This document shows, one piece after another, positions 10,486 through 49,279 of a stretch of DNA of 54,065 bases. The notes below the pieces were generated by a model. The model was not told the origin of the DNA and ran no database searches. It saw nothing but the letters and a program-made list of their open reading frames with translations. Position numbers and translations under genes: made by a program. Source of the stretch: Catajapyx aquilonaris (Eukaryota); contig JYFJ02002606.1 of assembly GCA_000934665.2 (NCBI GenBank), positions 1-54,065 on the forward strand, read 5' to 3'. Each line of letters begins with the position of its first letter. The first letter of the stretch is position 1.

Positions 10486-10804
10486 TAAAATTTCTGGACT
10501 GATCCAGAATTTTACGGAAATAGTTATCGAGCCGTTTGGTACTTATAAGTTTTATCAGACATTCGATGTTGTTAATTATTCAGTGATCAAAATATTGATT
10601 ATTATCATTGATCTGACTCATCTGAGAAAGTAGTGTTACGGACCTAGTAGGCCTATATACTGACTCTGATGGATGATTATGCCAATAAAAATTGCACACC
10701 CACAAAACATACAGAGAAGTGAGGGTTGTTAGTGTTTGTATGGGTATGCCCATACCATTTGTTCAATCCTATAGAGACACGATGAGTCTATTTGTATTTC
10801 CCAG

Positions 10805-17885: not shown

Positions 17886-20012
17886 ATGCTGGCTTGCAGT
17901 CTGCTGTTGCTTCTTGCTCTGCAGAACTGTCAGGGAGGTAGTGTGAATCTGCTGCAAGAAGATGAGGAGGACCAGCTGGTGTCCAGGATGGTCCTGGAGC
18001 TGCTGGAGAACCAGCTTCAGGACTGCTCGTTGGTGCTGTCCTTGGGCGAAGGAGAGGACAGCTCGAGTTTGTCCGGACTGTTGACTGAACGAAATGGAGG
18101 GTACCACACGACGGTCACACTCGGTGAAGGAAAGGACAACGCGTTTCGACCCAAACCATGGAACGAATACATCGGAATCACTGGTCCTGAGCAGATGCAC
18201 TCCTTCACCACCATGCCTCCAGACATGATGTCCCAAGTACCAGCCGGAGGAACATATTGTGTCCTGCACCTCTTGGTGTCCCACACTCCGTCCACCCTGC
18301 CTGACCAGCTGGTTCAACTGGCAGGGACAGTCCGGGTCAGGAATCTGCACGACCACTTCGTTCTTCACTTTCGCAACATAACTGCGCAAAACAAAGATAT
18401 GCTACTGGATAATCCAGCCAGAGGCATCCGGTACAAGATCATATCAAACAGGTACTGTTTTCTTTTTAAAAAAATCACATTTTTGCTAAAGTTCGAGAGC
18501 AAGCTTGCACTCTTATCGATGACTGGATCCTTATTTTTCAGAACTAATCAAGCAAGAATGTCCGGAAAGCAGTTGACACTTGAGACCGTGTGCTTCTACT
18601 GCGATCACGGACATCCCAACTGGATGACTCTGGGCAGCTATCCGGACAGATTCCCACTTGGAGATGTGTATCCGGACACTAGCGGAGACCTGCACGGAAG
18701 TACGATCAATTTCGCCCACATTGAATTCCATGACACGTCGTTGGCACGTAAAATCCTGAATTTATTTGGGCGGCTGTACCTCACTTCGCTTCAGAAGATG
18801 TACCTCACGTGGGAGGACACCTTCAACGCAAGGATGAAGGTCATAGACGTAGATGACCCCAAGACGGAACAGTGGGACAAGATGAGACCAAACGGAAGCT
18901 GGGTGGGGTCAGTCGGACAAATACTGTCCGGAGAAGCCACTGCTGGATTGATGTACTTCATGTCTGACCAGGCCGTCCGGTACGTGCTATTTTCTCCGGC
19001 AGTCCTTAATTTTTACATGACATTCGTCACAGCCTTGCCCAGAAAGGTCATCTCTTGGAGCTTGCTGTTCGACCCATTCGATCTCTCACTGTGGGCATTG
19101 ATCCTGGTGACCTGGATCATATCAGGAGTGGCCATGTGGATGATCATCCGTCGCTCAGGAGTGAATATCAGCCTGGGATCAGCAACAGCATCTCTCTTCA
19201 AGATGCTCATTGGACAGCCTCATGATCTTCCTCAACTCACAGCATCTCGTGAGTTCGAAGGGGCAATGAGGCTCATGGCCATCATCGTCTCCTGCGGGTA
19301 CGTCACCAAACTGCTGGCCTTCTTGGCCGTGCTGTCCAAGGAGGAACTGCCCAGGACCTTGGGTCAGCTGGCTCAGGAAGGGTACGAGACACTGATACCC
19401 TACTCAAACCTGGTGGTCGTCTCTCAGATCTACGCCAACACCCCTTACGAAGATCTCATCAACCAATCATCAATCATGACCAATTCCGAGGATTGCATGG
19501 CACAAGTGGTCGACACTCCAAGAAAAGCATGTCTACTGTACAACTACTTTGTTGACCGAGACGAAGGCAAATTGAGAGATGAGAACGGAGACCCCACCTT
19601 GCAAGTGGCTCCTGAACATGCATACAACGTGTATACTTCTGTTGTCTGCGACAAGGGTATCGTTGCGGTACCAAGAGCTCTCATGTTTCTCATGAAGCTG
19701 TGGGAGAGTGACCTCTACAACCAGTGGAAGAGAGAGGACACCTTACGCGATTTGTGGGCCAACCGTCCCATAATGCGTCTTGCAGAAGATGGTCCAAAGG
19801 ACTATCGCAGGGAAAACGCAGCCAAAGCTGAAAATCTTCTCGTTGTGTGTGTTTTCTGGATCACCGGAATGTCTCTTGCTGCACTGGCATTCACCTTTGA
19901 GCTTGGATACTGGAAGAGTTCAAAAGTGTTCTCACGCAAGAATGGCGAACAAACAAAGGAAGAGGTAATAATCCCAGTAACACATTCATCAGAATCAGTA
20001 CTTCAACTATAG
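17886..20012 (+). CDS. Divergent ionotropic receptor IR-D, 2 exons, ~678 aa
   Basis: Exons 17886-18451 and 18542-20012. The 90-nt intron is at the conserved position but is stop-free, which explains the 712-aa ORF in the track. Confidence 0.88.
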   Translation: MLACSLLLLLALQNCQGGSVNLLQEDEEDQLVSRMVLELLENQLQDCSLVLSLGEGEDSSSLSGLLTERNGGYHTTVTLGEGKDNAFRPKPWNEYIGITGPEQMHSFTTMPPDMMSQVPAGGTYCVLHLLVSHTPSTLPDQLVQLAGTVRVRNLHDHFVLHFRNITAQNKDMLLDNPARGIRYKIISNRYCFLFKKITFLLKFESKLALLSMTGSLFFRTNQARMSGKQLTLETVCFYCDHGHPNWMTLGSYPDRFPLGDVYPDTSGDLHGSTINFAHIEFHDTSLARKILNLFGRLYLTSLQKMYLTWEDTFNARMKVIDVDDPKTEQWDKMRPNGSWVGSVGQILSGEATAGLMYFMSDQAVRYVLFSPAVLNFYMTFVTALPRKVISWSLLFDPFDLSLWALILVTWIISGVAMWMIIRRSGVNISLGSATASLFKMLIGQPHDLPQLTASREFEGAMRLMAIIVSCGYVTKLLAFLAVLSKEELPRTLGQLAQEGYETLIPYSNLVVVSQIYANTPYEDLINQSSIMTNSEDCMAQVVDTPRKACLLYNYFVDRDEGKLRDENGDPTLQVAPEHAYNVYTSVVCDKGIVAVPRALMFLMKLWESDLYNQWKREDTLRDLWANRPIMRLAEDGPKDYRRENAAKAENLLVVCVFWITGMSLAALAFTFELGYWKSSKVFSRKNGEQTKEEVIIPVTHSSESVLQL

Positions 20013-20643
20013 GTCCGTAGCATTACTTTCTTTGATCAATGATAATAATCAATATTTTGCGCAATCACTGTATGATTAACAACCTTGAATGTCAGGTGTA
20101 AGTACCGGCTTCCGGCAACCGTATGGCACTCCAGAATTATTTTTGACCTTTACATGCTTAATAAAGAACTGACAGTTTTTGGTACGGTAATCGATGATGT
20201 ATTGATGTACCGGTACAGTCACCTTACCTACACTTAGCATGTACACTTTACAATTTTACTCTCACAGTCAGCTAATGAACAAATCTATTACTCGTAACTG
20301 ATGACAAATAGAAAATTTTGTATTGTAAATTTTTATTGAAATAATTCCTGGCCCTGTAAGGTCATGTTGCTTCCATATGTTATACTGACCTTCCTATACT
20401 TGGAGGTGTTCGAATTGTTGAACAAGTGAGTTGTTGACATCGTAGCTCCTTTGATCCTGCAGGTATGTCTGTCATTACCCGACACGCTCCGGTACATGAC
20501 AGTACATAGATTATTATCGATCATATTCTTTGAAAACAACAAGAAGTGACTCTGTGGCGCTCTGTGGTCAGGATGTTTCACAATATTTTCTTACGCTGAA
20601 AGAGACAGTCCGGTTGCCCCATTGCGGGACAATTATTTAAATT

Positions 20644-22520
20644 ATGTTTCCTTTTGGACTTGTTGTTTATTGTTGCTTCAACATTGCGGGAGCTCTCGTA
20701 CATATACAGTCTGTAAATGGGACAGACGATCGAATCCCTCAGTTTGTCATCAATATTCTTGGACATGACCTCGTCATGGACATGGAGTGTCCACTGGCCA
20801 TCACCCACGACTGGGACGGACCAATCCCTCAGAGTCTGGACACACTCCTGTCCAGCATGTCATATTCTGGACGACCCCTGGTCATCAGGGCAAGTTCTCG
20901 GAGCACCTGGGATTGCCAACCGACATCTAGAGACAATGCGGCCGTGTTCAGAGAGCCATACCGCGCATCCAAGTGTCTGGTGCACATGGTTGTGACATGC
21001 CAGGACACCTACGAGGACATGATGGACATCATTTTGGACCCGGACGAAGGGATGCTCGGAGTGAGGAAGACAAAGGACCGGTTCGTGTTCTGGATACGGG
21101 ACTCGACTCGTCCGGATTTCATGATGGACAAACCGGCCTCGCAGTTCAAGTACAAGGTGTCGCTGAGTACAGGAGGAGCCAACGGTGCTCTCAAGGCACA
21201 CTCGGTGTGCTTCTTCTGCGACCAAGGAGAACCACAGATCGAATCAGTGTCTGGGGACAGTTTGTTCAGAGACACTGCAGAGGACTTACATGGGAAACAC
21301 CTAGAAGGTGTGTACATGTGGGACAATATAGACGACAAGTGCATCGGCGGAGACTTACTCGATGTCCACATGTGCTTCTTAGGTCAAGCCATGAACTTCA
21401 AATGGCATATGACCGAGGTTGATTTCGACTCAATCCTTTCCGATGCTGGCAGAAGCCTCGATCTGATGGAAGATTTTCAATCAGGAAAAGTAGCCTTCAT
21501 ACCAAAGGCCCCTGTGTTAGACCTGATATACCAACTGTTTGACTGTGCTACACCTCACGGTGCATACAGATACACGTTCATAGCACGTAAACCACGAGCA
21601 CTAATTACGCCATTAATTTTAGTAATGCCCTTCTCACTTACGACTTGGTGCATGTTGATTGCATCTTTTTTGATGGAGGTTGGATTTTTTTCATTGATCG
21701 CCAAGTTTCATAGAAGACATGGAGTATTTAGCCTACTCCGTTCAATTCAACTGTGGCTATTTTTAAATATTTGGCGAAAATTGTTGTGGAGCAGTTTCCT
21801 CCTTCTCCTTCATCATCATCGTACAGAATGTTCCTGATGTTCTGGGTATATTTTTGCACAATTTTTTGCACCGGATACAAAAGCAAGTTGTTCGACAAGC
21901 TTATTTTTCCACCATTAGAAATAATTCCTAGGGACATACATGAACTGACGTATTCCAATTTCGCCATAGAAACGTCTCCAATAGTGAAAATGTTTATGGA
22001 CGAAGCAAGTAGTGATTTCAAAGACACATATTCCGCTTTCTTGTCAAAAATAAATGTTGTAGATCGGATCGTGACACGCTCTGAGGACATTACGACAGGT
22101 GATGTTGTGATCCTGGAAGCCGATCCTGTTCTGGAGGATATCTCTTTTGTATTATCTATTGAAGGCATTGGTGAGACTCTAACATCAAGTGACACCATGG
22201 CTCTTGTACACACATCTTTGATCGTACTCAAGGACAGCATTTACTCTGAGAACATTAACAAATGGATGCATGTGTTCAACAGCATCGGTTTGGAGTTGTA
22301 TCGGAAGAGTTTGAAGAGACATGAACTATCGTTGTATGCTTCTAAAATGAAGGAGATGAGGAAGTTGTACACTTCGGACAGAAACGATGTGCAGTTCACA
22401 TGGCGTCATGTCGAAGGATCTTTCTTGATTCTGTTCATTGGATGTATGGCAGGATTGGTTGCACTTTTGCGAGAACTGTGCTCTGTTTGTAAGCGAAAAC
22501 GGCATCCATTTCTACCCTAG
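20644..22520 (+). pseudogene. Intronless divergent IR (IR-E) with one frameshift after M1 (pseudogene or sequence error)
   Basis: ORF 20644-21837 carries the signal peptide, CFFCDQG, DLHGKHL and LVMPFSLTTW-M1. ORF 21753-22520 carries IVVEQ, M3 GYKSKLF, S2 and M4. A -1 frame change occurs at ~21730-21755, with no room for an intron. Confidence 0.78.
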
Positions 22521-26313: not shown

Positions 26314-26385
26314 AGAGAGATGGTGTCATGAAATGGTGTTTTTCATTCACTGAGTCTACAACAATTAGAATTGAAAAAGCAGAGC

Positions 26386-26697
26386 GACCCTCCCATGCCC
26401 CTCAACTTGGCACCAAACACAGCAAACAAAGGGGAATGAAGAAGAAGAATCAAAGGGAATTCCTCTCACTGAAACCACAAACAAAAACGTTCCAAATTCC
26501 GACGCCATCTTGGGTCGAACGGAAATGTCGCGTAGCTGCTATTTAGCAGCCTGCAAGTTAGCAGCTACGCGACATTTCCGTTCGATCCAAGATGGCGTCG
26601 GAATTTGGAACGTTTTTGTTTCAGTGAGAGGAATTCCTTTTGATTCTTCTTCTTCATTCCCCTTTGTTTGCTGTGTTTGGTGCCAAATGGGAGGGTC
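26386..26697. repeat. Fold-back inverted duplication of the ARL14EP 5' end
   Basis: Arms 26386-26541 and 26559-26697 are reverse complements apart from two short indels and a few substitutions; 17-nt spacer. Confidence 0.92.
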
Positions 26698-27379
26698 AAA
26701 GGGAAAGGGGAAGGCGGCCAAGGGGGCCTCATCATCCTCCACTAGTAGTAGCGGGGCTGGTGGTGGAAGCAGCGCTACAGACCGGCCAGGGTCATCAGCA
26801 GCAGAGAAGGGTGCGGCTGGTGGTGCCCTTCAACAGGTCAGCAGGAGACTTGGATTTGTGGTAAAGAGATGGGTTCTAATGTGGCCGTCTCATAGGTGCA
26901 GCAGGGTGTGGCTGGAACGGGGGCCAGGCCGAAGAAGGGGCAGTGGCGGTCCAACAGCAGGCAGACGACGGACCAGGCCAGGACCTTCCTGCACACCTTC
27001 GACCCGAAGAAGAGCAACAGGGAGAGGAGGAAGAAGAACAGGAAGAACTACACCGAGACGTAATAACGAGATCATCACAAGCGCAGGCTGCTGTGCACGC
27101 GCTCACACTTCTCTCTTTATTATTATTCCCATCAGCAGCAAGAGCAGCCAGACTCTGTACGACGAGCAGGGCCTGCTGACCATCGCTGGTGGGATTGACC
27201 TCTGCGACTGCCTGGATGTGACCTGCCCTGGCTGCCACTTCCCCTGCCCCAAGTGCCGCAAGAACAAGTGCGGACACGAGTGCAGGAACAACCGCAAGTG
27301 GATGTATGACCAGATCGAAATTGAAGGGTCGGACAGGGTCATCAAGAATCCCTTCTATGACCTTGTTCACAATAAGTAG
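26687..27379 (+). CDS. ARL14EP: ARL14 effector protein (ARF7EP C-terminal domain), 3 exons, ~185 aa
   Basis: Exons 26687-26836, 26896-27059 and 27136-27379 (the last with a NAGNAG acceptor). Motifs [16 protein letters not shown] and [50 protein letters not shown]. Confidence 0.9.
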
Positions 27380-28847: not shown

Positions 28848-30743
28848 TTACAAGACCGCGGCTTTTGAAGTTGAACGAAAATGAACAAGTTCGCAAACAA
28901 AACTTATGATGCAAGATGCCAAAAGGAGCGATAGAAGTACAAACAGACCTTTCATCTGGCGTATATTTAGAGCCATCGAGTACGTGTACAGACGGTTTTC
29001 TTTTCTCGCATCCTTAAGTCCCATCATGAAAAAGGACCGGACGAACTCATCCATGTAATGATCGTATATTCCGGCTTCTGATATGTAAATCTGCATCCTC
29101 GCAATTACAGGACCAATCGGCGAGTACTTAGGCATTGCTATTCCGCATATGATTCGTAATGAGTTGTCATCAGCTATTTCCACAGGAAGCGTTCCTTCTT
29201 TGTCGACCTGCTGGTACGCCATTGCGTTCAGAAGTTCTTCGACCGCCAAGCAACTGAAGTCCTCGTTAATAGACCGCATCAGACACGCCTTCATATCGCC
29301 ACCGTTCTGAAGCTTCGGCTGAATATCATGATGATACGAGACCTCCGAATCGGCTATGAACATGTCCATATAAGGTCTGACCCAATCGAGCGCGCCCCAT
29401 TGCCAATCAGGCCAGTTCACCATCTGTCGTAAGTCGTTCGGTAGCGATTCCATCTGCGGCGACACTAGAAACCCAAAGTACTTGGCCTCGTATCCACAAA
29501 TAATAACGTCGCATGATATCCACCAAAATGCAATTAGTACACGAAGCGTATGAGCTGTCGGTACCAAGTTCGGATTCTCTTCAATTAGAGCGGAAAATAT
29601 GTAGCGGATGGAATACAATGCGGCGGACGGAGGTGGTTTATCGTCGAATGACGTGGCGAATGAACCATGCAGTTTGATGAGTGCTAACAATGTTATGCTG
29701 GTGATCGTTGCGGTTACAAATATTGCGGCCCACATGCCTTTAGTGAACGGCAATGCGATTGAGTAAAATGAGAACAGTCGGCCAGGCGTACGTCTCATGA
29801 ATGTTGTTTGCGCCGTATAAAAATTAAACGGCAAATCCACAACCTGCACAAGACCTACTCGGGACATACCCGAAGCGATGTCAACCTCACGGCGTATCAT
29901 CTGCCCAGCCATACCAGTCCAGTTGCCGTCCGGAAGCGCAATCTCCTGGTTTTTTCCGGGTATCTCCGGAGGCGTGTCGATATGCCAGTCGAAGTTCAGT
30001 TGTCGTCCGGATGCTGCGTACATACGGAGGTACGGATATACCGGAAGTCCACTGTCCAACATGAAGTTGAGCTCGTCTGGCGATGCACCGAGAGGAAACG
30101 AACCGTTCAGATGACGTCCATGGAAATTTAATGTGAAGTCCGGATACAGCTCAAGATTCAAATCCGGGTACTTCCCGCGTCGTACCACCGCCGGATTGCC
30201 TTCGTTGCAATACAGACAATTGTTGCTTATGGTCAACTCTGCGTCCAATGCGAGTTGATACAGAAAGTTGTAATCCGGATGAAGCATCGCCGGTTCCGCA
30301 TTGTTGTCACGACTAATGTACATAAACCGGTCACGTCTCGGGTTCATCCGGACTATACTCGCGACATACCGGATCAGCCGTTCGTAATGTTCGTTACGGT
30401 ACATCAGTACGAACAAGGTGCATTTGCTGAGATGCTGCGATGTTGGTCGTTCCAGCCACGAGAAGTAGTATTCGAAGTCGCCAGGTCCTGTGTTTCGAAA
30501 CGGTTGCGGTTCAGGTGTCGACGATGTCCATTTGACGATGGCTACCGGACCACCGGAGCTGATGTTCATCATGTCATACCGCGGTGTTACGTCTCGATCA
30601 TGAGCAATCACTAATAGACAATCACTTTTCTGGCCGTGCACCATTTGTATAAATGAACCAACATGTTCGTCTTCGTTGATTGATTGTAGATTAATCGCAG
30701 CGACGGCCAATAACAGCAACGACAATGCAACGACACAGTACAT
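28848..30743 (-). CDS. Intronless divergent ionotropic receptor IR-F, 631 aa
   Basis: Signal peptide, CLYCNEG, YPDFTLNFHGRHL, LPDGNWTGMAGQMIRREVDIA, IALPFTKGMWAAI-M1, M3 GYEAKYFGFL, S2, and M4 ending SFVCEL. Confidence 0.88.
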   Translation of the reverse strand: MYCVVALSLLLLAVAAINLQSINEDEHVGSFIQMVHGQKSDCLLVIAHDRDVTPRYDMMNISSGGPVAIVKWTSSTPEPQPFRNTGPGDFEYYFSWLERPTSQHLSKCTLFVLMYRNEHYERLIRYVASIVRMNPRRDRFMYISRDNNAEPAMLHPDYNFLYQLALDAELTISNNCLYCNEGNPAVVRRGKYPDLNLELYPDFTLNFHGRHLNGSFPLGASPDELNFMLDSGLPVYPYLRMYAASGRQLNFDWHIDTPPEIPGKNQEIALPDGNWTGMAGQMIRREVDIASGMSRVGLVQVVDLPFNFYTAQTTFMRRTPGRLFSFYSIALPFTKGMWAAIFVTATITSITLLALIKLHGSFATSFDDKPPPSAALYSIRYIFSALIEENPNLVPTAHTLRVLIAFWWISCDVIICGYEAKYFGFLVSPQMESLPNDLRQMVNWPDWQWGALDWVRPYMDMFIADSEVSYHHDIQPKLQNGGDMKACLMRSINEDFSCLAVEELLNAMAYQQVDKEGTLPVEIADDNSLRIICGIAMPKYSPIGPVIARMQIYISEAGIYDHYMDEFVRSFFMMGLKDARKENRLYTYSMALNIRQMKGLFVLLSLLLASCIISFVCELVHFRSTSKAAVL

Positions 30744-31379
30744 GTTTGCAGGCTACGTACACCCAAGGAAATGTACTGAGTTGTGTAATGAGCGTTTAAC
30801 TTTTGATCTTTACTCATGCAAGTTCCCTTAACAATGAATCGAAATTACAATGTAAGTTTTTCTTTGAAGTGATCGCAGGGTATGAACAATAGTCATGTCA
30901 ATGTGCGGATGACGAGATGGTTCACATCCGCATGTCAGCCGTTTTGCCATTGAATGATTTCAAAGCGAGTACTGTCGAATTAAATATGCTGTTAAATATG
31001 TAACGATAACATTGTCCCATTTTTTTGTGCTGTATAAAATGAGTGTGTAGCAATGTACCTTTTTTCCATTGTTATACTGTATGAGAAAAATATTGATTGA
31101 TTTCGAACCCGGAGTAATTTAGCTCAACATGCGGACTAATAAGCCTTCATTTTACTATGAACGATGCATGTCAAAATGTCATGATTGCGACATGTCGACC
31201 ACATGTCGGATAGCTTCAAACGACATGATAAATGCATTAGGTAACTTGAAAAAAAAAAAAGGCCATTAAATTTAATTGAACACCGATATCAATTTTTGTA
31301 CATTTAATCATAATTATATAAACAATATTCAGGAGTACACCAGCGAGCACAATATTTGTATATAGGACAATTCAAACAA

Positions 31380-35502: not shown

Positions 35503-36480
35503 GCTATGTACGTACACTACTTACATGTATGTCTATGTACAGTAAATACATGCATGTCTATGTACAGTAAATACATGCATGTCTATGTACATTAAATACA
35601 TGTATGTATGCACAGTAAATACATGCATGTCTATGTACATGAAATACATGTATGTCTATGTACATTAAATACATGTATGTCTATGTACATTAAATACATG
35701 TATGTCTATGTACACTACATTTACACGTCTGTATGTGAAATATGTACGTTTATATACTCTACGTACGATGCCTAAATACGTTACGGTATGTAATTAGTTC
35801 TTGGTTACGTACATATATGTCTGTAAGACTAAGTACGTTATGTACCTGACTATGTAAGACTAAGTACGTTGTGTACATGTCTGTAAGACTAAGTACGTTA
35901 TGTACCTGACTATGTAAGACTAAGTACGTTGTGTACATGTCTGTAAGACTAAGTACGTTATGTACCTGACTATGTAAGACTAAGTACGTTGTGTACATGT
36001 CTGTAAGACTAAGTACGTTATGTACCTGACTATGTAAGACCAAGGTAAGACTAAGTACCACTTTGTGTACCTGACTATGTAAGACTAAGTACGTTGTGTA
36101 CCTGACTATGTAAGACCAAGAGCTCTTGGTAAGACTAAGTACGTTGTGTAGGCTACATGTCTGTAAGACTAAGTACGTTATGCACCTGGCTATATGTAAG
36201 ACCAAGTACGTCATGTACCTGACTATGTAAGACCAAGGTAAGACCAAGTACGTCATGTACCTGACTATGTAAGACTAAGTACATTATGTACATGTCTGTA
36301 AGGCTAAGTATGTTATGTACATGTCTATGTAAATATTGTAAAACTAAGTACGTTGCGTACATGTCTGCTCACATGTACTTATATAAGTACCCTACATACA
36401 TGTACGTCTACGTACCTTATGTACATTTATGTCTAAGTAAGATACATACATACGTCTGTGTACGTTACATGTTACATACC
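35503..36480. repeat. GTAC-rich minisatellite region (25-bp units, then a 60-bp unit made of 32+28 subunits)
   Basis: GTCTATGTACAGTAAATACATGCAT repeats at ~35530-35715. The 60-mer CTGTAAGACTAAGTACGTTATGTACCTGACTATGTAAGACTAAGTACGTTGTGTACATGT is exact at 35821, 35881 and 35941, then degenerates. Confidence 0.92.
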
Positions 36481-37180: not shown

Positions 37181-37580
37181 GTGCCTTGCACTGCAATGAC
37201 AGCAGCAAAGAACCTTCCCCATAGGGAACTAGGGAAGGTAATTTTCAAGCGGGGCTGGGCACATGCTGCGCTTGGGAAATGGGTCGACAAGCAGGCCGTC
37301 CACTTCCTGACAACCATATCCATGGGGCAGAAATGCAAGAGGTGGTACGGCGTCGCAGAAGATCTAAGGAGCTCGTCGAGCCAATAAGTCACCCAGAGTA
37401 CCAGCAGCATGTGCCGCAGTGCCAGCGGGGCAGGCTGCAGCATCAGGTGGATTTGAAACTGTCTCCAAACCGGTGGCTGTAATGGAATACAACAAGTACA
37501 TGGGCAGTGTGGACCGGATGGATCAAAGGCTTAGCTACTATCCGCTGGAGCACCCTACAGTTAAATGGTGGGAAAAGGGC
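37181..37580 (+). mobile_element. Degenerate piggyBac transposase fragment
   Basis: KWVDKQAVHFLTTI (W.DK..V..LST motif) and, after frameshifts, KPVAVMEYNKYMGSVDRMDQRLSYYPLEHPTVKWWEK (YNKxMGGVDxxDQ, the third catalytic Asp region) at ~37467-37577. Confidence 0.85.
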
Positions 37581-38242
37581 GGTTAGTATACATTTGCATC
37601 CACAATTTGTGGGTAATCAAGAAGCCCGAGACAACGTCCAAGGATGTGAGGAGGGCTCTGGCTTATGCTTTGGTGGACAGAGCACGAAAGGAAGCTTCTT
37701 GTACAGTGTAATTATTTATTACTCAATAGCTTTTACTACTTGTAATTTTTCTTTATGTAACGCATCATCTGTTTTAGATCCTGGACACAACAAGGGTACG
37801 TCTTGCACAACAATAATGGAAGGACACCTTTTCTTTTTTTTTTAACCAACTCCGCAGACCTTGATTATGCCTAAAAATGTGGACCATTTAACTTTACCTA
37901 TATACAGATAGTAGTTATGTGGATTTGTTTACTTTTGAGTCCATTGGTCTTGACATTGGTCTGTGGGGATTTCCCTCAGGAACATTGGGCAATGAGCCAA
38001 GCATACCAGTCACTTTTCTATTTTCATCCTGACTTCGGGGAAGATTTTGGTGAGTCTGAACAGTGCTAGCTGAATGGCTGCATGTACGTTGGTATGACTT
38101 TGGTCGCACCGCTCGGACTTCTTCCAAGTGCGGCTGGTGCAGTACGTGGGTCAATTCCGGACACCCCGGATAATAACAATATTTTTCGTACCTTTCAGGT
38201 ATTTCAAGCAACACTGCCCTGTTGAAAGGGATCGTACCCACA

Positions 38243-41200
38243 ATGGACGTACCAAGTAACAAGTCCGACCAGTCTCGCACTATGGCTGCTATGGTCGGAT
38301 CAGTTGCAAGTGCGATGAGCAAGAACTTGAACCAGAGCAGGTGAAGTTTAGAACGAATGTACGATGTTTGTTTTGGTTCTTGAGTATATCAATACTGATT
38401 TTTTAAAACACTTTGTAGGAATCTGACGGAGTATCGTATGGTGGAAGGGATAAGGCCAGTAGTGGAAGTACGGACGGACGAGCCAGATGGTGTCGAGACC
38501 CGTAATCCTATCCTGAGAATGGCAGAGTCAGTTACAAGTGAACTGAACGAAAGCGTGAAAAGGTGCGTTTACGTCCGACCTTATTAAAACATATAGTTTG
38601 TAGTCCAATATCAGTGTAAATTAGGTGCATGCAAGAGCTAATGTAATAGACTAATTTTTTTAGCACATGTCTTTTTTAGCTATTTTTTAAAATCAATATG
38701 TAGAATTTATTACTGATTGTTTTTATTTCCATTAGGGGTTTAGAAGGGCCTCACATTGGCCGCTGCCTGTCTGATGATGCGAACGAGTTGCAATCATGGG
38801 AGAAAGTAGAGAAGTCGGAGCTGAAGGACACATCCGCGTTGTCTTCCAAGCCAGTTTTTTCACACATTGCATCACAGTTGAAGCGTGAGTATTAAACCAA
38901 CAGTAAGTTCGTCTGGTATGCATTAAATGTACCAGTAATTTTATTATTATTTTGCTAATTAATTTTTTAATACATAAGGGAGAGTGGGCTGGCCTGTCAC
39001 CATAGTGGAGAAGGACGGAAACGGCTTTAAACTGAACAAAAGTGCCCTGAGAAAAGTGTTAACGAAAGGTCGCATTAAGGACAAACCTGTCGTTGTGGTG
39101 TCAGTAGCTGGGGCCTTCCGACTGGGGAAGTCCTTCATGCTGGATTTCTTTCTGCGATTCATGAACGCAAAGGTCAGTGTCATTATTAGTAATAATAATT
39201 ACACCCAAGTAACGTTGTATTTTTGGCATGCGCATAGATGTTACTTGGCTGGATTGGAGCGGAAGACACTCCCTTGGAAGGATTCTCCTGGCGAGGCGGA
39301 ACCAAACCTGAAACAACAGGCCTTGTGGTGTGGAGCGAACTTTTCGAGGCAGAGGGACCAGACGGACACCCTGTTGCCGTCCTGTTGATGGACACCCAGG
39401 GATTATTTGACAACAGGTCCACTGCCAATGATTGTGTCAACATATTTGCACTCAGCACCTTGATCAGCTCTGTGCAGATATTCAACCTGTCCGGCAACAT
39501 ACAGGAGGACGACCTGCAACACCTGCAGTACTTCACAGAGTATGGTCGGATGGCACTTGAGCAGAGCGGTGAGACGCCTTTCCAGCGACTGCTCTTCCTT
39601 GTGAGAAACTACGGCTTGACTGATGAGTACGGACTTGAAGGAGGAAGAAAATTGCTTGATGAAATGCTGGAGGTGAGAGACGATCAAGTTGGAGAACTTC
39701 AGATGTTGAGGGAACACATCCGCAATAGTTTTTCGGATGTGGATTGCTTCTTGATGCCCCATCCTGGCAAGAATGTGTCCAAGGCAGGCTTTGATGGGAG
39801 TACACGGGACTTGGATGAAGATTTCAAGGAGCAGCTGCAGGTGCTGGTGCCACACGTGTTGTCGAAGGAGAACTTGGTCGTTAAGAAAATTGGAGGAACT
39901 ATAATCAAAGCAAAGGAGCTGATTGGCTACATCAGTTCGTACTTCAGTGCTCTGAATTCTGATGCAATACCGGAGCCGAGAACTTTGCTGAAGGTAATTA
40001 CTACAGTTGATTTTTAGACTGATTGTATGATCTGTCTTTCTGTGTATTTAAATACATTTTTCTTTACGTGTGCCAGGCGACGGCTGAGGCGACACACATG
40101 GTTGCAGTAGATAAAGCCAAGGAGCATTATGACGAGCAGCTGGATGAGATGTTTGGCGACAGAGACTTGTTCGTATATGTGGACGAGGAAATGCTGAAGA
40201 ATAAGCATGACACAACAGTAGATTCCAGTCGAGCAGTGTTCACGAATACGAGGAAGATCGGTGGAGAGGATATGTGTATGGCATATGAAGGAAGGTTGTT
40301 GCAGGTGGTTACTTTATATTTGCCCCTACCTAACATAGTACTTTTGACTGTACTAATTAGCTGATGATATTTATTAGCTTATGTGTGAAGAGCGATGCTG
40401 AAGTAAGCTGACCCTAATTAACAATACTTTCCTTTGCAGGAATTGAGCAAGAGGAAAGATTACTACAGCCAACTGAACAGAAACAATTACGAAGTGGCCA
40501 AGAAGAGTGCTGCCGATGCTGCCAATGTTGCGATAAAGTTGTACGAAGAGTTGCTGGATGCTGTTTTTCCATGTGAAGACTCGTTTGTGGATGGGAAGAA
40601 ATTAGAAAGCGAGCATAGGGATGCAAAGGAGAAGAGTCGAGAGATGTACAGAACAACACAGAAATTTGGGAGAGAAGATTTGTGGACGGAGCACGAAAAC
40701 AAGCTTATGAAGGTACATTCTGTACATTTTGCAAGCGTCTTGTAACTTGATTCATGTAACACATTATCATATGACTTGTTTTAGATCCTGGACGATACAT
40801 TTCAAGCCTACATCTCATGCAACAAGAATAACACCGAGAAGGCAAAGAAGTTGTACATGGAAGAATCAAAAACGGAGTACGACCAGATGATGCGTGCAAT
40901 TTTTGCATACGAGTCGCTCTTCATATATGATTCAGATCTGCGGAAAATGCACAACGAAGCTAAGAGTCTTTGTTTGAACCTGTTCACCAAGAGTATGGCT
41001 GGAAAATCAGTTGCGGAAGAGAACAGGGAGACTCTGGACAACATGTATAACGAGGCTGCAACACAAGAATCCGGCGAAGGATCTTCTTCGGTGGTGGCCA
41101 ACGATATTCAATGGAACATGAGTGATGGAATATCGTGGTGTAAAGAAGAGTACAACCTACTTGAAATGGTAATGATCGTATCGTAACTAATCCGATTAAT

Positions 41201-42268
41201 AATGTAATCCACCGGGTATGTCTCGATGTGGTGTTCATTAATCAGGTAAAAAATGTGCATTTCAGGAGCTGGAGAGAATGTATGATCGCTACCTACTGAT
41301 CAACAAAGGCATACACGAAGCCGCTCACAAGCAGAATGAGGGTGTATTGCAAGGAGCGCTTGCCAGTTACACAGAGATTATGGATGATTCATGTGGGGAC
41401 AAAAGCAGGGAAGTGTTCAACAGAGAAGAATTAGCACGACAGCATACTTTTGCGGAGAACTGGAGCATGGACGTGTTTCACAACGCCAATAAAATGGGTG
41501 ACGATATGTTCATAGAGAGATACCAGGAAGAATTAAATCAGGTAGTTTGTTCAAAAGTGGATTGTTACTGGCACATTACAGATGAATTTTTCCTCCTAGA
41601 AATTAGGCCACAAGTTCCAGATGTATGTTGGGAAGAATGACGAAAGACGTCGGCAGGCCGAGAGGGATAATGATGCGGCCATTGCTGCTGCGAGAGAGAG
41701 CTACTGCATGCGTCTGAGAGACATCACTGATCGGCATCCAAATCAGTTCATCCCCGAGGCGGACTTAATTCGAGTACTTAGCATTGCACGTGATGAGAGT
41801 CTCGATATCTTCAGGAATGCGGAGAAGATGGGTGGTGATAGATTCTCAAGGCCATATGAGGATAAGCTCAAGCAGGTAATATTATCTGCCTGTTTATTTA
41901 TTTTGTGTAACCACAAACCTGTCAACTTCTCTTGCATTTAGGAATTGGACAGCATATTTAGAACATGCCTTGCCGACAACGCAAGGAAGCTGTCCATCAT
42001 CCCAGATGGTAGACAAGCTGCTGCGGCTGGTGTGTCGTGTGCGTTGATGAACGTTGGTTTCATGGCTCTGGATTATGCAGCTGCAGTTACCGCAGCTGGT
42101 GCTGGGGGTGCGGCAGCAACCGGTGCCGTGGGTGTTGCGACTATAGCAACCGCTGGAACTGGGATGGTCATAGTGGGTGCTACTGCGTCAGCTGTAGCAG
42201 CCAGTCTTATGGCAAAAACTTTATTATCTACGATCTTGCTGAAGCTTAAACGCACTTGGAGGCGGTGA
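38243..42268 (+). CDS. Atlastin-family large GTPase, copy 1, with five tandem three-helix-bundle modules; 11 exons, ~1034 aa
   Basis: Exons 38243-38340, 38419-38562, 38736-38884, 38979-39172, 39238-39993, 40077-40304, 40440-40712, 40785-41168, 41266-41541, 41600-41875 and 41942-42268, all phase-consistent. G1 VAGAFRLGKS, G2 FSWRGGTKPETTG, G3 DTQG, NIQEDDLQHLQYFTEYGR, G4 FLVRNY, CFLMPHPG and ATAEA. Confidence 0.9.
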
Positions 42269-42789
42269 AGGAATTATATTAAACTGAAGGCAACAAAGTT
42301 ACATATTCCGGAGTAAAATATTTTTGGGTACTGTTAATGCGAGTTGCAGTGGGGAAATAACTGGAGATTCATGTTCAAATAATTTTTCCTGGTTCCTTAT
42401 CTGCTACGGAGATATATTTTGGGCCTCTTCCATGATGTTTTTAAAGCATAATTATGTTTTATGTAGCCTCCCTCGCATTGCGTGATGGAGGCTTTTTATT
42501 TCATCGTAGGTGCAGCCTTGGTATATCTTGAATGCACATTCGCTCACACTGTTGTTGTCTTAGCAACAATAGCTGGGGAAAGTGTACAATCATAATGTAC
42601 GGAAAACGAGAGGACTATCCGACGTCATGGTTTCTTCCATTGTTGCCTTTTGTTGACACTGTTTGCTCATATTGTTCTGTGAGAGTATTTCTATGATGGA
42701 AACCTCAGTCAGATCGTTCTCTCATTTTGCGTACATTGTAGTGACGATGTAAGTCAGTCTGGAATAAACGCACTATCTGGAATAGACGT

Positions 42790-43270
42790 GGTTGGCTTTT
42801 GTTCTGAGACTCAGGTACTGCCTCGTCTGCCTCGCCTGCAGCTGGTGGCAAGGGGCCCACTACATGGTGTCAAGAAGCGGGTTCTTCGGGACAGATGTCA
42901 GAGAGGAGTGATGTGCAGCACGGCAGTATCATTGTGGCAGGAGGGTCTGGTATCGATTGCCGGAATCAGTCCCCAAGCATGTTAGATTTACTAAAATATT
43001 AGGCATGGATAAAACATTCGACGTCCTGAGGATCCACCACTCTGCAGTGTGCCAACGTGCGACAGTCAAAAGATTTATAAAGTGCCCTAAATGTGGAGGT
43101 ACTTCGTGCTTTAAGATTATCTTATGTATATGCATAATGCATTATATAAAAGAGAAAATCTCTGTTTTTTTGTCGGGGCTACCTAACCCACTTTCGGAGT
43201 GCTTCGAGTGCTGAAACTATTGGCACACTGATGGCTTAGGTGCCGCTAATTCGAGGGACACTCCGAAAAC
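42790..43270 (+). mobile_element. Possible degraded piggyBac C-terminal (Cys-rich) remnant
   Basis: VPKHVRF...AVCQRATVKRFIKCPKCGGTSCFK resembles a piggyBac CRD. Short inverted motifs TTTCGGAGTG / CACTCCGAAA at ~43192 and ~43259. Weak evidence. Confidence 0.3.
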
Positions 43271-43614
43271 TGAACTTTTTTTTTTTTTTTTTCAGAATTT
43301 TTATTGGCGTGTATGGATGACTTGTAAAAAAAATTACCATTTAACTCGACCTATTTACATAAATAGTTATAGTAGTTTAATTATAATCAATTTGTCTTAT
43401 AAATCCGGATTTGTTTCCTTTTGAGTCTGGTTTTTTGAGTGTATTGGTCTTCGGTGGTCTCTGGGGAATTCCCTCAGGACCTTTGAGGGCTTCAAGGACA
43501 ACTTTTACTAGCCAAGCATAGTAGCATACCAATCCAGGTTTGGGGGAAGATTTGTTGTTGAGTCTGGGGAGTGGTGAGGATGACATTGGTTGCGGCTGGC
43601 CTTACAGTATAACT

Positions 43615-43697
43615 ATGACGTGTGAGTACATATTGGTCAATTCTGGACACTCCGGACCGGAGTGTCCAGAATTGACCAATATGTACTCACACGTCAT
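43615..43697. repeat. Perfect palindrome, 41-bp arms, 1-nt spacer
   Basis: ATGACGTGTGAGTACATATTGGTCAATTCTGGACACTCCGG-A-CCGGAGTGTCCAGAATTGACCAATATGTACTCACACGTCAT. Confidence 0.95.
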
Positions 43698-43782
43698 CCG
43701 GAGTGTCAGGATATTAACAATGTTTTTCGTACTCCTGTCAGGTATTTAAATAAGCAACCTGTTGAAAGGGATCGTACCAACA

Positions 43783-46700
43783 ATGGAAGTACCAAGTAAC
43801 AATAATAAGTCCGACGGAGGCCAATCACGCACTACGGCTACAACGGTCGGATCAGTTGCAAGTGCGATGAGCAAGAATTTGAACCAGAGCAGGTGAATGT
43901 TTTGGATCTTGAATATCAATACCGTACTGATTATTTCAAAACTACTTGTAGGACTACTCTGACGGAGTATCGTATGGTGGAAGGGATCAGCAGGTCAGCG
44001 GTGGGAGTACGGACAGATGAGTCGGCCTGTGTTGAGCCTTGTAGTACTTTGCAAAGTGTGGTAGAATCAGTCGCCAGTGAACTGAACGAAAGTGTGAACC
44101 AGATCAGAAGGAAGTGAGTTTAATTGAACATCCTTATTAAAACGTATATATAAATTTGTAGCACATTATCAGCTTCAATGTATGGTGCGTGTAATAGATA
44201 TCTGCACAAATTAATTTTTTAACAGCATAATAATTATGTCTTTCTTTAGTTGTGTAGTATTGTTCCAATATTGGTCGATTTTATTACTGATTGGTTTTAC
44301 TTCCATTAGGGATTTAAGAGGGCCTCGCATTGGCCACCGTTTGCCTGATGATGCAGATGATTTGCAATCTTGGGAAAAAGTAAATATGTCGGAGCTGGAA
44401 GACACATCTGCACCATCCTCCAAGCCAGTATTTTCAAGTACAACACAGTTTAAATGTGAGTCTTAAACCAACATTTAGTCTGTGTTAATGATATTTACGT
44501 TTTTTTAAACACAAAAGGGAGAGTGGACAGAACTTCTGAGTTGGGCAAGCCTGTCACCATAGTGGAGAAGGATGGAAACGGCTTTAAACTGAACAAAAGT
44601 GCCCTGAGGAAAGTGTTAAGGAAAGGTCGTATTAAAAACAAACCTGTAGTTGTGGTGTCAATAGCTGGGGCCTTCCGATTGGGGAAGTCCTTCATGTTGG
44701 ATTTCTTCCTTCGATTCATGAACGCAAAGGTCAGTGACTTTAGTAATAGTGGAGTTGCGGAATGTGTAACTCTTAATTTGCGTGCGCATAGATGCGACCT
44801 GGCTGGATTGGAGCGGATGACACTCCCTTGGAAGGATTCTCTTGGCGATGCGGAAACCAACCCGAAACGACAGGCCTTGTCGTATGGAGCGAACTCTTTG
44901 AAGCCGAGGGACCAGACGGATACCCAGTTGCCATCCTGTTGATGGACACCCAGGGATTATTTGACAACAGGTCCACTGCCAGCGATTGTGTCAACATATT
45001 TGCACTCAGCACCATGATCAGCTCTGTGCAGATATTCAACCTGTCCGGCAACATACAGGAGGACGACCTGCAACACCTGCAGTACTTCACAGAGTATGGT
45101 CGGATGGCACTTGAGCAGAGCGGCGAGACGCCTTTCCAGCGACTGATCTTCCTTGTCAGAAACTACAGCTTGACTGATCAGTACGGACTTGAAGGGGGGA
45201 GAAAATTGCTGGAAGAAATGCTGGAGGTGAGAGACGATCAAGTTGGAGAACTGAAGATGTTGAGGGAACACATCCGCAATAGTTTCTCGGACGTGGATTG
45301 CTTCTTGATGCCCCAACCTGGCAACAATGTGTCCAAGGCAAGCTTCGATGGGAGTACACGGTATTTGGACAAAGATTTCAAAGAGCAGCTGCAGGACCTG
45401 GTGCCACACGTGTTGTCGAAGGAGAACCTGGTCGTTAAGAAAATTGGAGGAACTGTAATCAGAGCAAAGGAGCTGATTAGGTACATCAGTTCGTACTTTG
45501 ATGCTCTGAATTCTGATGCAATACCAGAGCCGAGAACTTTGCTGAAGGTAATTACTGCAGTTGATTTTTAAACTGATGCATGATCTGTCTTTCTGTGTAT
45601 TTAAAAACATTTTTCTTTACGCGTGCCAGGCGACGGCTGAGGCGACAAACATGGTCGCAGTGGAGAAAGCCAAGGAACATTACGATGAGCATCTAGATGA
45701 GATGTTTGGCGACAGAGACTTGTTTGCATATGTGGACGAGGAAATGCTGAAGAATAAACACAACACAACCACAGAATCCAGTGTGGACGTGTTTAAGAAT
45801 GCGAGGAAAATGGGTGGAGAGGATATGTGCATGGCATACGAAGGAAGACTGGTGCAGGTACTTGCTTGTTGATTTACCTGTACAAGTACTTCTCAATATT
45901 TGCTTAGTGTTCGCATTAGAATTTTTGAAATATATTACCAATTAAGTTTATTCTGAAATGAACTCTGTTGCAGGAATTGAACAAGAGGAAGGATTACTAC
46001 TGGCATCTGAACAGAAACAATTGCGAAGTGGCCAAGAAGAGCACTGGCGATGCTGTCGATGCTGCAGTAACGACATACGAGGAGTTACTAGATGCAGTTT
46101 TTCCATGTGAGGACTCGTTTGTAGCCGAGAAGAAATTAGATAGCGAGCATAGTGTTGCGAAGGAAAAGAGTCGAGAGAGGTACAGAACAACCCGGATAAT
46201 TGGCACAGAAGAATTGTGGACGGAGTATGAAATGAAGCTTCTGAAGGCAAGGCGTAATGATTTATTACTACGGTACGTAATTTGTCTGAGCACAATGCGT
46301 GATCACATGACTTTGTTTTAGATCCTGGAAGATACATTTCAAGCCTACATGTCACGCAACAAGAAGAACACTGAGAAAGCGAAGAAGTTGTACATGGAAG
46401 AATCAAAAACTGAGTACGACCAGAAGATGCGTGCAATTTTTGCAAATGAGTTGCAGTTCATACGCGATTGCGATCTGCGGAAAAAGCACAATGAAGCTAA
46501 GGATCTTTGTTTGAAGCTGTTTGCTAACAATATGGCTAGAAAATCAGTTGCAGAAGAGAACAGGGAGACTCTGGACAGCATGTGCAATGACGAGACTACA
46601 ACAGAAGATGACAACATCAATGCGACCAGCGAAGGAGCTGCTTCTGTGGTGGCCAATGATACACACCAGAACTTGAGTGATGGAATATTATTGTGCTGTA

Positions 46701-47789
46701 TGGGAGATTACAAATTGCTTGACACGGTAACTAATTGCAATTCATTTGATGATAAGAGAATCCAAGTAGTACATTTGCATTTCAGGAGTTGGACAGAATG
46801 TATGATCGCTACCTACTGATGAACAAATGCATACACGAAGCAGCTCACGAGAAGAATGAGAGTGTATTGAAAGAAGCTTATGCGAGGTACATGACGATTA
46901 TGGATGCTGCCTGTGGAGACACAGAAGTATTTGATGCGGAAGAATTAGCAGAAGAGCATAACGTTGCAAAGAACAGGAGCATGAACCTATTTCGGGAGGC
47001 GAATAAAAAGGGTGACGAGAAGTTCATAGAGGAATACAAGGAAAAATTAATTCAGGTAAGTGGTTCAAAACTGGACACTGATACAACATGTTACACTGAT
47101 TTTTTCTCCCAGAAATTAGGCCACAAGTTCGAGATGTATGTTGTGAAGAATGACGAAAGACGTCGGCAGGCAGAGAGGGATAACGATGCGGCCGTAACTG
47201 ATGCAAAGGAGAACTACAGAATGCGCCTGAATGAGTTCACTGGCCAGCACCCAAATGAGTTCATCCGCGAGGCGGACTTATGTACAGTAGATGTAGCCGC
47301 AAGTGATGAGAGTATGAATATCTTCAGGAGTATGGAGAAGATGGGTGGTGATAGATTCTCAAGGCCATATGAGGATAAGCTTAAACAGGTAATAATATCT
47401 GTCTGTTTTCTGTTTATTTGTGTGACCAAACAGTGAATTTCTTTTGCAATTAGGAATTGGACAGGATATTTAGAATGTGCCTTGCTGACAATGCAAAGAG
47501 GCTGTCGATGATGCCGAATGGTAGACATATGACTGCAGCTGGAGTGTCAGGTGCAGTGATACGCGTTGGTTTCTTGGCTCTGGAATATGCAGCTGCAGCT
47601 ACTGCGGCTGGTGCAGCAGGGAGTGTTGCATATGGTGCTGGGGGTGCTGCAGTGGGTGTTGGGGCTATAGCAACCGCTGGCACTGGAATGGTCATAGCGG
47701 GTGCTACTGCGTCTGCCATAGCCACCTGTCTTATGGCAAAAACTTTATTATCTACGATCATGTTGAAGCTTAGACGCAGGATGCGATGA
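43783..47789 (+). CDS. Atlastin-family large GTPase, copy 2 (tandem duplicate); 11 exons, ~1057 aa
   Basis: Exons 43783-43892, 43952-44113, 44310-44455, 44518-44729, 44792-45547, 45630-45857, 45974-46246 (GC donor, or a GT at 46277), 46322-46726, 46786-47055, 47113-47388 and 47454-47789. Same motifs and intron positions as copy 1. Confidence 0.9.
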
Positions 47790-49279
47790 ACCCCAGAATC
47801 AATTATTTGTATCATTTTTATATGTTTTATGAACAAACATTTTCCATCACTCTCAGTAGTCAGGTTGTGGGTTAGGTAGCTGCGTGACATACATACCAAG
47901 AAACTATGTGATTTATATTATTAACGGTATGTACCGGTGTTTGTGGCTCAAGCCATATGGCTTCAGTATGCGCAGAAAAAATTCTATTGCACGAGCTCAC
48001 TTATATGTTCAGAATTTTAATTGGAATTTCGTCATATTTTTATACCTTCATGATGATAATTCATAATAAGTGTTTGTACGTCTTGTGTAACCCCTGTATG
48101 GTTGTGCTGTATGAATAAATGGAAACCTTCAAACAAATCTGATGACAATTTAATGGATTCAATAAATTATCCAAATTTAACAATTTTGGAACTATCGTGT
48201 GCCGCATTCATCTGGTAACCCTCCCTCCCTTCAACCGTCGCCTATTCCCTTCTCCGTCTGGCAACCCTGCAAGATTTGAAAACGTCTCTTTTTATTCCCA
48301 GCAGGCAGCAGTGGCCGTGATGACCTGAAGGACGGTCAGTTCCTTTGGCCATAATAAGCAAAATATTCTTCTTCCAGTCCGCCTGCCCATCTTGTTGTGC
48401 AGGGGAAGGGTCGACTTAGTCTATACACGGCACCAGCACAGCACCACACAAGGTCGCTACCCATAACAGTTAAGAGGAAGATTAGAACATTACAGAAATT
48501 AAGTGAGCGGAATGTACGTGAGATGGTGTGGAACGGAACGTGTCAAGTTGCTCAATTATTATTATTACATGTCATGCAATTGGTGCTATTAGCGTTATGT
48601 ACTTACTGATCTTAGCATAATGTACTGGGGTTAGCACAATGTACTTACCGTGTGCGGCGTAATGTACTTACTGTGTGCGGCGTAATGTACTTACTGGTGT
48701 TAGCGTAATGTACTTTGTGCGGCGTAATGTACTTACTGGTGTTAGCATAATGTACGGTACTTACTGGTGTTAGCGTAATGTACTTACTGGTCTTAGCATA
48801 ATGTACTGGTGTTAGCGCAATGTACTTACTCTTGGCAGCGTAATGTACTTACTGTTCGCAGCATAATGTACTTACTGCTCACAGCCTAATTACTTACTGT
48901 TCGCAGCTTAATATACTTCATGTTCGCAGAGTAATGTACTTACTGTTCGCAGCATAATGTACTTCCTGTTCACAGCCTAATTACTTACTGTTCGCAGCTT
49001 AATATACTTCATGTTCGCAGAGTAATGTACTTACTGTTCGCAGCGTAATGTACTTACTGTTCGCAGAGTAATGTACTTACTGTTCGCAGCGTAATGTACT
49101 TACTGTTCGCAGCGTAATGTACTTACTGTTCGCAGCGTAATGTACTTACTGTTCGCAGAGTAATGTACTTCATGTTCGCAGCGTAATGTACTTCACGTTC
49201 ACAGAGTAATGTACTTACTGTTCGCAGCGTAATGTACTTACTGTTAATGTACTTACTGTTCGCAGCGTAATGTACTTAC

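Follow-up and report, generated by a model that had tools for sequence, protein, structure and literature searches.

Which kind of membrane GTPase is encoded by a pair of adjacent genes in Catajapyx aquilonaris, and does its long stalk set it apart from the atlastins that fuse membranes of the endoplasmic reticulum (ER)? The genes lie at positions 38,243 to 47,789 of the window analyzed here, namely, the whole of contig JYFJ02002606.1 (54,065 nucleotides (nt), forward strand, assembly GCA_000934665.2). A previous sequence-only reading had described them as tandem giant atlastins and a candidate new class of long-reach GTPases resembling guanylate-binding proteins (GBPs). We find that they are tandemly duplicated, intact atlastin-family GTPase genes with products of ~1040 amino acids (aa), whose stalk is a single atlastin three-helix bundle (3HB) amplified to five tandem copies, each on one phase-0 exon. 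The architecture is a lineage-specific, membrane-anchored five-bundle variant of the Sey1p/RHD3 design, which also occurs in many atlastin-like paralogues of arthropods, where it has gone unnoticed.

Both gene models were reassembled from the raw sequence, and each is open across all of its exons, as had been stated before. The two products, hereafter the window proteins, share 74% amino acid identity across their full length, and the duplication unit, introns included, is 79% identical at the nucleotide level; a tblastn search of the window with gene 1 matched only the two copies. Introns are short (57-196 nt), and all splice junctions are GT-AG except for that following gene 2 exon 7, which has a GC donor (46247-46248); use of an in-frame GT located 30 nt further downstream would lengthen the protein by 10 residues. 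Exons 5-11 start and end in phase 0 in both genes. Comparison of the copies by the Nei-Gojobori method gave a synonymous divergence (dS) of 0.34 and a nonsynonymous to synonymous ratio (dN/dS) of 0.36 overall, with values between 0.15 and 0.59 for the 11 individual exons (0.16-0.59 for those of the stalk). Therefore, purifying selection has acted on each exon of the two copies, including those of the stalk and of the N-terminal extension. The latter, previously put at ~130 aa, comprises ~131 aa encoded by exons 1-3, in agreement with the finding that the alignment of canonical atlastins to gene 1 begins at ~aa 134.

The stalk exons measure 228/273/384/276/276 nt in gene 1; these lengths are as stated before, as approximate values for both genes, and those of gene 2 are 228/273/405/270/276 nt. 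All ten translations fall into one common alignment register, in which exon 6 begins at helix 1, exons 7-10 begin with the last 16-17 residues of helix 3 of the preceding bundle, and exon 11 begins with the same helix-3 tail before running into the anchor. An iterated hidden Markov model (HMM) of the module detected five modules in each gene, upholding the five-fold repetition proposed from the letters alone. The stalk exons of gene 1 match one another by tblastn (25-29% identity, E ~1e-5 to 3e-6), and stalk exons are 20-31% identical to the module-5 exon. Homology to the ATL1 middle domain, also proposed earlier, is evident from the profile of the ten exons, which matched the 3HB of ATL1 (residues 349-423) with an E-value of 2.7e-15, Drosophila atlastin with 1.9e-11, ATL3 with 2.9e-11 and GBP5 with 0.2; the Sey1p chains gave no match to this profile at E up to 10. 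One earlier assignment has to be corrected: the segment LRKMHNEAK, taken as the KMGG-equivalent of module 3, sits in helix 2, and the KMGG-equivalent position of this module reads TKSMAGKS. That each repeat occupies a phase-0 exon of its own is what tandem exon duplication would produce.

The G domain, encoded by exons 4 and 5, is a GBP-fold large G domain, clearly of the atlastin type, which confirms the family membership first proposed. GBP was the sole significant Pfam family for these exons, and an RHD3-type family was not reported. Among solved chains, the G domain matched Drosophila atlastin (3x1d) with an E-value of 2.5e-86, human ATL1/ATL3 with 7.6e-84 to 4.5e-78, RNF112-like chains with 8e-29, and GBPs with 4e-9 or weaker, and is thus far closer to atlastins than to GBPs. 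Exon 5 is 53-59% identical to arthropod atlastins, and none of the 120 matches listed exceeds 59% identity to it. The P-loop GAFRLGKS with its Arg finger, the switch 1 Thr (ETTG) and the DTQG motif are intact in both genes. However, in G4 both have RN where the guanine-contact motif RD would be expected (codons for ...LVRNY... at 39600-39615 and 45154-45169). Of 257 related G domains, 252 carry RD and none carries RN, and RD was likewise found in 21 of the 23 relatives of a smaller alignment. The same change in human GBP1 (hGBP1), D184N, has been used as an oligomerisation-defective, GTPase-deficient loss-of-function mutant (bioRxiv 10.1101/2021.08.26.457804; PMC5571548). The coordinates of the gene pair and its parts are listed in the table.

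Table. Features of the tandem atlastin-family gene pair in the window (positions on JYFJ02002606.1; E, E-value)
Feature	Positions	Strand	Evidence or remark
Gene 1	38243..42268	+	11 coding exons, 1034 aa; spliced open reading frame (ORF) open
Gene 1 exons 1-3, N-terminal extension	38243-38340, 38419-38562, 38736-38884	+	dN/dS 0.18-0.34
Gene 1 exons 4-5, atlastin-type G domain	38979-39172, 39238-39993	+	Pfam GBP E 3.6e-11 and 1.8e-59
Gene 1 exon 6, 3HB module 1 (helix 1, helix 2, head of helix 3)	40077..40304	+	register alignment, module HMM
Gene 1 exon 7, tail of module 1 helix 3 and module 2	40440..40712	+	register alignment, module HMM
Gene 1 exon 8, module 3, with ~36-43 aa insertion near helix 2/helix 3 boundary	40785..41168	+	register alignment, module HMM
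Gene 1 exon 9, module 4	41266..41541	+	register alignment, module HMM
Gene 1 exon 10, module 5, most atlastin-like	41600..41875	+	ATL1 350-421, E 2.5e-6
Gene 1 exon 11, last helix-3 tail, ~75 aa Ala/Gly-rich hydrophobic anchor, 8 basic-rich residues, stop	41942..42268	+	
Gene 2	43783..47789	+	11 coding exons, 1057 aa
Gene 2 exons 1-3, N-terminal extension	43783-43892, 43952-44113, 44310-44455	+	gene model; dN/dS
Gene 2 exons 4-5, G domain, also with RN	44518-44729, 44792-45547	+	Pfam GBP E 1.1e-58
Gene 2 exons 6-10, five 3HB modules	45630-45857, 45974-46246, 46322-46726, 46786-47055, 47113-47388	+	register alignment, module HMM
Gene 2 exon 11, helix-3 tail and Ala/Gly-rich anchor, stop	47454..47789	+	
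Tandem duplication unit	38168..42269	+	pairs with 43709-47790
Upstream patch, gene 1	37933..37987	+	kB-like site GGGGATTTCCC at 37965-37975
Upstream patch, gene 2	43433..43485	+	kB-like site GGGGAATTCCC at 43463-43473

At the C-terminal end, the last module and the helix-3 tail are collinear with the canonical atlastin 3HB, and the anchor, a hydrophobic stretch of ~75 aa (KD19 maxima 1.74 and 1.63), occupies the position of the canonical hairpin. Its composition is different, though, with 46-48% Ala+Gly, 20-23 small-xxx-small motifs and 2-3 aromatic residues, versus 13-24%, 1-3 and 8-13, respectively, in the aromatic-rich hairpins of all six canonical atlastins compared. Only eight residues follow the hydrophobic stretch, whereas canonical sequences run on for at least 50 residues into the tail helix; therefore, the window proteins are without the amphipathic helix that follows the hairpin in atlastins and is 'essential for membrane fusion' there (PMC10278267). 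Their ends, ...KLKRTWRR and ...KLRRRMR, have no Cys at position -4, i.e., no CaaX box. A resemblance of the anchor to IFI6/IFI27, small interferon-induced Ala/Gly-rich membrane proteins, was considered as well, and was dropped as Pfam gave no such family for exon 11 at E up to 1 and the best Atlas score was 0.79, below lead level.

We examined the likely shape of the stalk on a five-module relative from Bombyx mandarina, which was folded with AlphaFold2 (AF2) and 31 homologues in place of a window protein, yielding a mean predicted local distance difference test (pLDDT) score of 86.2. After the G domain of this model, short helices alternate with four long ones (residues 388-436, 476-518, 559-602 and 646-689), each of which runs from the end of one bundle through the start of the next, as in Sey1p. 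Sey1p of fungi (solved for Candida) and RHD3 of plants are ER fusogens; Sey1p has a stalk of four tandem, interconnected 3HBs, one of which has a long loop, and truncation of this stalk abolishes fusion (PMC4576867). A Foldseek search with the model returned ATL1/ATL3 first (target-normalised TM-score up to 0.89), followed by RNF112 and GBPs; Sey1p was absent among the rows listed, and was found by VIA-align. The latter program aligned the model with Drosophila atlastin at Z 39.9, with GBP1 at Z 23.9 over model residues 4-500, and with Sey1p (5ca8) at Z 21.8 over 563 aligned residues (model residues 8-670), where the root-mean-square deviation of 16.3 arises because the bends differ. No other solved chain follows the modelled stalk for most of its length. 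In the window proteins themselves, all eight inter-module junctions (50-residue windows) are free of proline and there is no linker between modules, and the ~500-aa stalk contains only 3-4 prolines, all of them either within the loops between helices 1 and 2 or where a helix 3 begins. We infer that the stalk would form a continuous chain of bundles, i.e., a rod of roughly 20-25 nm if 30-35-residue helices per bundle are assumed, with the G domain far from the membrane.

How do these proteins relate to the known systems? With Sey1p/RHD3 they share the order of a G domain, a tandem-3HB stalk with a long loop in one bundle, and a membrane anchor; by the model of the relative, the last helix of one bundle would also run into the next. 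However, their stalk is without detectable sequence similarity to that of Sey1p/RHD3, their G domain is of the atlastin/GBP type, they have five bundles rather than four, and their design comes from recent exon amplification inside an atlastin gene. With the canonical atlastins (human ATL1-3 and Drosophila), they have in common the G domain, the homology of the modules to the ATL1 3HB, and the collinearity of the last module and the anchor; they differ in having five bundles instead of one and the N-terminal extension, in RN versus RD, and in the composition of the anchor and the missing tail helix. The likeness to GBP1/2/5 consists of the G-domain superfamily (Pfam GBP), a stalk starting with 3HBs, and an elongated shape; the stalk of GBP1 opens with a pair of 3HBs whose arrangement matches that of the first pair in Sey1p (PMC4576867). 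In contrast to these GBPs, the window proteins are integral or monotopic rather than prenylated. Moreover, GBP_C gave no match above threshold (best E 0.022, below the curated cut-off and in one exon only), and no back-folding alpha12/13 element as in GBPs was identified in the window proteins.

To find out how widespread this architecture is, the module profile was scored exhaustively against 1.84 billion representative proteins, which yielded 258 matches at E up to 1e-3, several of them with multiple matched stretches; a word-index search with the module alignment gave no match among longer proteins. The module HMM, run on fetched proteins, showed that 'atlastin-like' proteins in public databases combine an atlastin G domain with 3-6 modules, and that canonical atlastins have exactly one (6/6 shown). 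We tallied the modules in 213 single-G-domain proteins, the two window proteins included. One module was found in 135 proteins (132 with a hydrophobic C-terminal end), two in 8, three in 20, four in 13 (6 with a terminal hydrophobic anchor), five in 36, and six in a single protein. Among the 20 proteins with three modules, eight terminate in a CaaX box, as used for targeting by GBP1/2/5, and 33 of the 36 five-module proteins have no hydrophobic end, the other three being the two window proteins and one ostracod protein. By lineage, Lepidoptera (Ostrinia, Bombyx mandarina, Heliothis, Spodoptera, Helicoverpa, Manduca and others) have five modules without an anchor in 744-808 aa; tephritid flies (Bactrocera, Zeugodacus, Ceratitis) have 3-4 modules; barnacles (Amphibalanus, Pollicipes) and a gall midge (Contarinia) have three modules and a CaaX box; and the ostracod Darwinula has 5-6 modules and an anchor. 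The CaaX ends of the three-module proteins P0123, P0132, P0195, P0280, P0281, P0292, P0295 and P0305 are in some cases preceded by basic residues, and the named ones among these proteins are from barnacles or the gall midge. In addition, the gene models P0001-P0016, from ticks, mites, a pseudoscorpion, an ostracod, chironomids and a flatworm, contain two to four atlastin G domains, and are probably fused predictions across tandem arrays of atlastin-like genes.

The claim of a new class is therefore not supported, since proteins with 3-6 modules are already in public databases and the tandem-3HB stalk of Sey1p has been solved, so that the architecture is largely on record. Even so, within the literature searched we found no description of tandem 3HB repeats in animal atlastin paralogues, and a review holds that insects have a single atlastin and that the one-bundle middle domain is the animal design (PMC10278267). 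The silkworm protein BmAtlastin-n (770 aa, encoded by a 2313-bp coding sequence (CDS) cloned from cDNA), which has no transmembrane (TM) segment, inhibits BmNPV, a baculovirus, and groups with two further TM-less silkworm atlastins (PMC4926086). In the part of that paper available, the repeat is not described and the region is called a 'coiled-coil middle domain'. The five-module Bombyx mandarina protein P0277 (767 aa) very probably belongs to the BmAtlastin-n branch. The lepidopteran atlastin-like proteins, BmAtlastin-n probably among them, resemble the window proteins in the atlastin-type G domain and the five 3HB modules, but they are without a membrane anchor, keep RD in G4, and have modules 2-5 that cluster with one another rather than with those of the window proteins. 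No close relative of the window genes turned up either in a scan of metagenomes and metatranscriptomes (80 loci, best 58% identity), where all 41 module-bearing ORFs had exactly one module, and the closest match to the stalk among the fetched proteins was ~25-38% identical. What is new in the window pair is the RN in G4, the lack of the C-terminal amphipathic helix, the small-residue-rich anchor, and a kB-like site common to both upstream regions.

Whether these long stalks arose once or several times was addressed with a module tree, which was built from 49 modules and 71 columns and has weak resolution. Each module of gene 1 pairs with the one at the same position in gene 2, with Shimodaira-Hasegawa-like approximate likelihood ratio test (SH-aLRT) values of 98-100 for modules 2-5; the two first modules are mutual nearest neighbours (83% identity) with no starred support. 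The five-module stalk thus predates the gene duplication. Modules tend to cluster by lineage, e.g., lepidopteran modules 2-5 (SH-aLRT 89), all four modules of one protein (81), and window modules 1, 2 and 5 (82). Window modules 1, 4 and 5 are nearest to the single bundle of canonical atlastins, with those of Lingula and Nucella on top, and are less similar to the modules at the same position in insects and crustaceans. When window modules were compared with lepidopteran ones by the approximately unbiased (AU) test, positional orthology was rejected at positions 2 (p 0.015) and 5 (p 0.019) but not at positions 3 (p 0.195) and 4 (p 0.083); the groups were defined by position, and the p values are uncorrected for the four tests. 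A quick tree of the G domains left the long-stalk lineages unresolved outside the canonical arthropod clade, with the window pair on a long branch (0.86), and did not decide between one origin and several. These results lend moderate support to independent amplification of the 3HB in different lineages.

Upstream of the genes, a single patch is conserved between the copies (82% identity), in which kB-like decamers stand at aligned positions; a third kB-like site is located at 43255. Both genes may therefore be under NF-kB/Rel control. An acceptor-like ...cag/gt is also found ~40 nt upstream of both start codons (38190-38200 and 43735-43745), which, together with the copy-to-copy conservation starting at 38168, suggests a non-coding upstream exon.

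As to function, we tentatively favour, at somewhat under an even chance, the reading that these five-bundle atlastin-family proteins with a rod-like stalk are likely non-fusogenic, long-reach, nucleotide-regulated membrane tethers or coats, or else defence GTPases. In such a mechanism, the five-bundle rod would hold the G domain ~20-25 nm from the membrane; RN in G4 is the change found in the loss-of-function mutant hGBP1 D184N. The proteins would most likely not be ER fusogens, because the amphipathic helix is missing, RN stands in place of RD, and the hairpin is replaced by a small-residue anchor; for the same reasons, a classical fusogen appears unlikely. They would instead act at long reach, and their functional kin would be the non-canonical atlastin-like paralogues with long stalks that arthropods have, among them BmAtlastin-n with its activity against a baculovirus. 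A GBP-like role in defence is plausible by analogy with the antiviral activity of BmAtlastin-n (PMC4926086), the CaaX ends in 8 of the 20 three-module relatives, and the kB-like site in the shared upstream patch. Several points weigh against this interpretation. The multi-3HB stalk of Sey1p drives fusion and needs its length (PMC4576867); therefore, the stalk of the window proteins says nothing against fusion, and the earlier argument that a long stalk favours tethering fails, as stalk length alone does not do so. The rod geometry is that of the model of the relative rather than of a window protein, and an AF2 model of exon 11 alone, which consists of two long helices, is of low confidence (pLDDT 55.5). 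The consequence of RN in an atlastin G domain is carried over from GBP1, and the domain is otherwise intact and strongly conserved between the copies (90% amino acid identity, dN/dS 0.25). All stalk exons are in phase 0-0, and therefore shorter in-frame isoforms are possible. On the defence side, P0277 (767 aa) and the 770-aa BmAtlastin-n come from sister species and may be distinct proteins, and the kB-like motif is not enriched across the window (10 matches versus 6.6 +/- 3.6 expected, with 19 of 100 shuffles reaching 10), so the shared site is a weak hint.

The same facts can be read in other ways. The pair may encode a long-stalk fusogen or homotypic tether like Sey1p/RHD3, working in the ER or another organelle, in a particular tissue or across a wider membrane spacing, with no part in defence. 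The five-bundle stalk would then be the equivalent, in animals, of the design seen in fungi and plants. This would accord with the four interconnected 3HBs of Sey1p and their required length (PMC4576867), with the alignment of the modelled relative to Sey1p along 563 residues, with an anchor kept at the canonical hairpin position, and with the intact P-loop, Arg finger, switch 1 Thr and DTQG. We consider it rather unlikely, as the amphipathic helix is absent, G4 reads RN, the anchor is unlike six of six canonical hairpins in composition, and the G domain is of the atlastin/GBP type, with no RHD3-type family from Pfam. A smaller probability still goes to a stalk of variable length, in which exons are skipped or chosen in a mutually exclusive manner and the five-bundle protein is a minor product. 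Since the stalk exons are all in phase 0-0 and have their boundaries at one and the same point of the bundle, they could be combined in any selection into a well-formed protein, and exon 6 joined to exon 11 would restore a canonical one-bundle atlastin. However, each stalk exon is under purifying selection in both paralogues, and the exons are unequal in length and have diverged from the module-5 exon to the low identities given above. Such divergence and length differences are unlike typical clusters of mutually exclusive exons. The five-module lepidopteran proteins (756-773 aa), moreover, are found on assembled contigs of 2.4-3.1 kb, which barely exceed the CDS, and BmAtlastin-n was cloned from cDNA at its full 2313 bp (PMC4926086).

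Least probable among these alternatives, in our judgement, is a GTPase-impaired regulator that binds GTP poorly and heterodimerises or competes with the canonical atlastin, thereby damping or localising fusion. Such a protein would fit with the RN that the two genes share and that none of the 257 related G domains has, and with the use of hGBP1 D184N as a loss-of-function mutant (bioRxiv 10.1101/2021.08.26.457804; PMC5571548), but the remaining catalytic motifs are conserved and the G domain is the most constrained part of the proteins.

A bolder extension of the tether or coat reading, which we put forward as a speculation that is more likely wrong than right, is that the 3HB serves as an evolutionary 'length dial', amplified independently by exon duplication in several lineages of invertebrates. 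The long-stalk paralogues would then constitute an unrecognised, GBP-analogous family of defence GTPases with interchangeable ends (a CaaX box, a tail anchor, a glycine-zipper-like anchor, or none). The window pair would be its anchored, kB-regulated member, in which RN is a changed nucleotide switch and the small-residue anchor oligomerises in, and disturbs, pathogen-associated or virus-remodelled ER membranes. Many arthropods, C. aquilonaris among them, possess additional atlastin paralogues with 3-6 atlastin bundles chained into a stalk and with ends that resemble GBP targeting signals; for one branch, antiviral activity has been published. These paralogues offer a natural series for relating stalk length to the working distance of a dynamin-like GTPase, with Sey1p as the sole solved comparison. 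They also bear on the question, raised by a review of GBPs (PMC9005921), of whether atlastin paralogues take the place of GBPs in those animals that lack them.

The remainder of the window contains several other features. Immediately upstream of gene 1, at 37368-37586 (+), is a piggyBac-type transposase remnant (DDE_Tnp_1_7, E 7.4e-4, below the cut-off). The ORF translations at 35759-36274 and 48645-48848 show short peptide units repeated many times, and therefore the gene pair has tandem DNA repeats on either side. Long paralogous ORFs that appear to contain few introns form a cluster at 7617-9083 (-), 13478-15022 (+), 17856-20012 (+), 20641-22520 (+) and 28848-30752 (-); two of them match the ligand-gated ion channel family Lig_chan (E 9.3e-9 and 3.2e-4, the latter below the cut-off), and the cluster looks like a set of divergent ionotropic-receptor-like genes. 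Finally, the ORFs at 10689-11666 (+), 15104-16585 (-), 26375-27379 (+) and 3975-4418 (+) correspond to a C2H2 zinc-finger array, a leucine-rich repeat protein, an ARF7EP_C-domain protein and ankyrin repeats, respectively.

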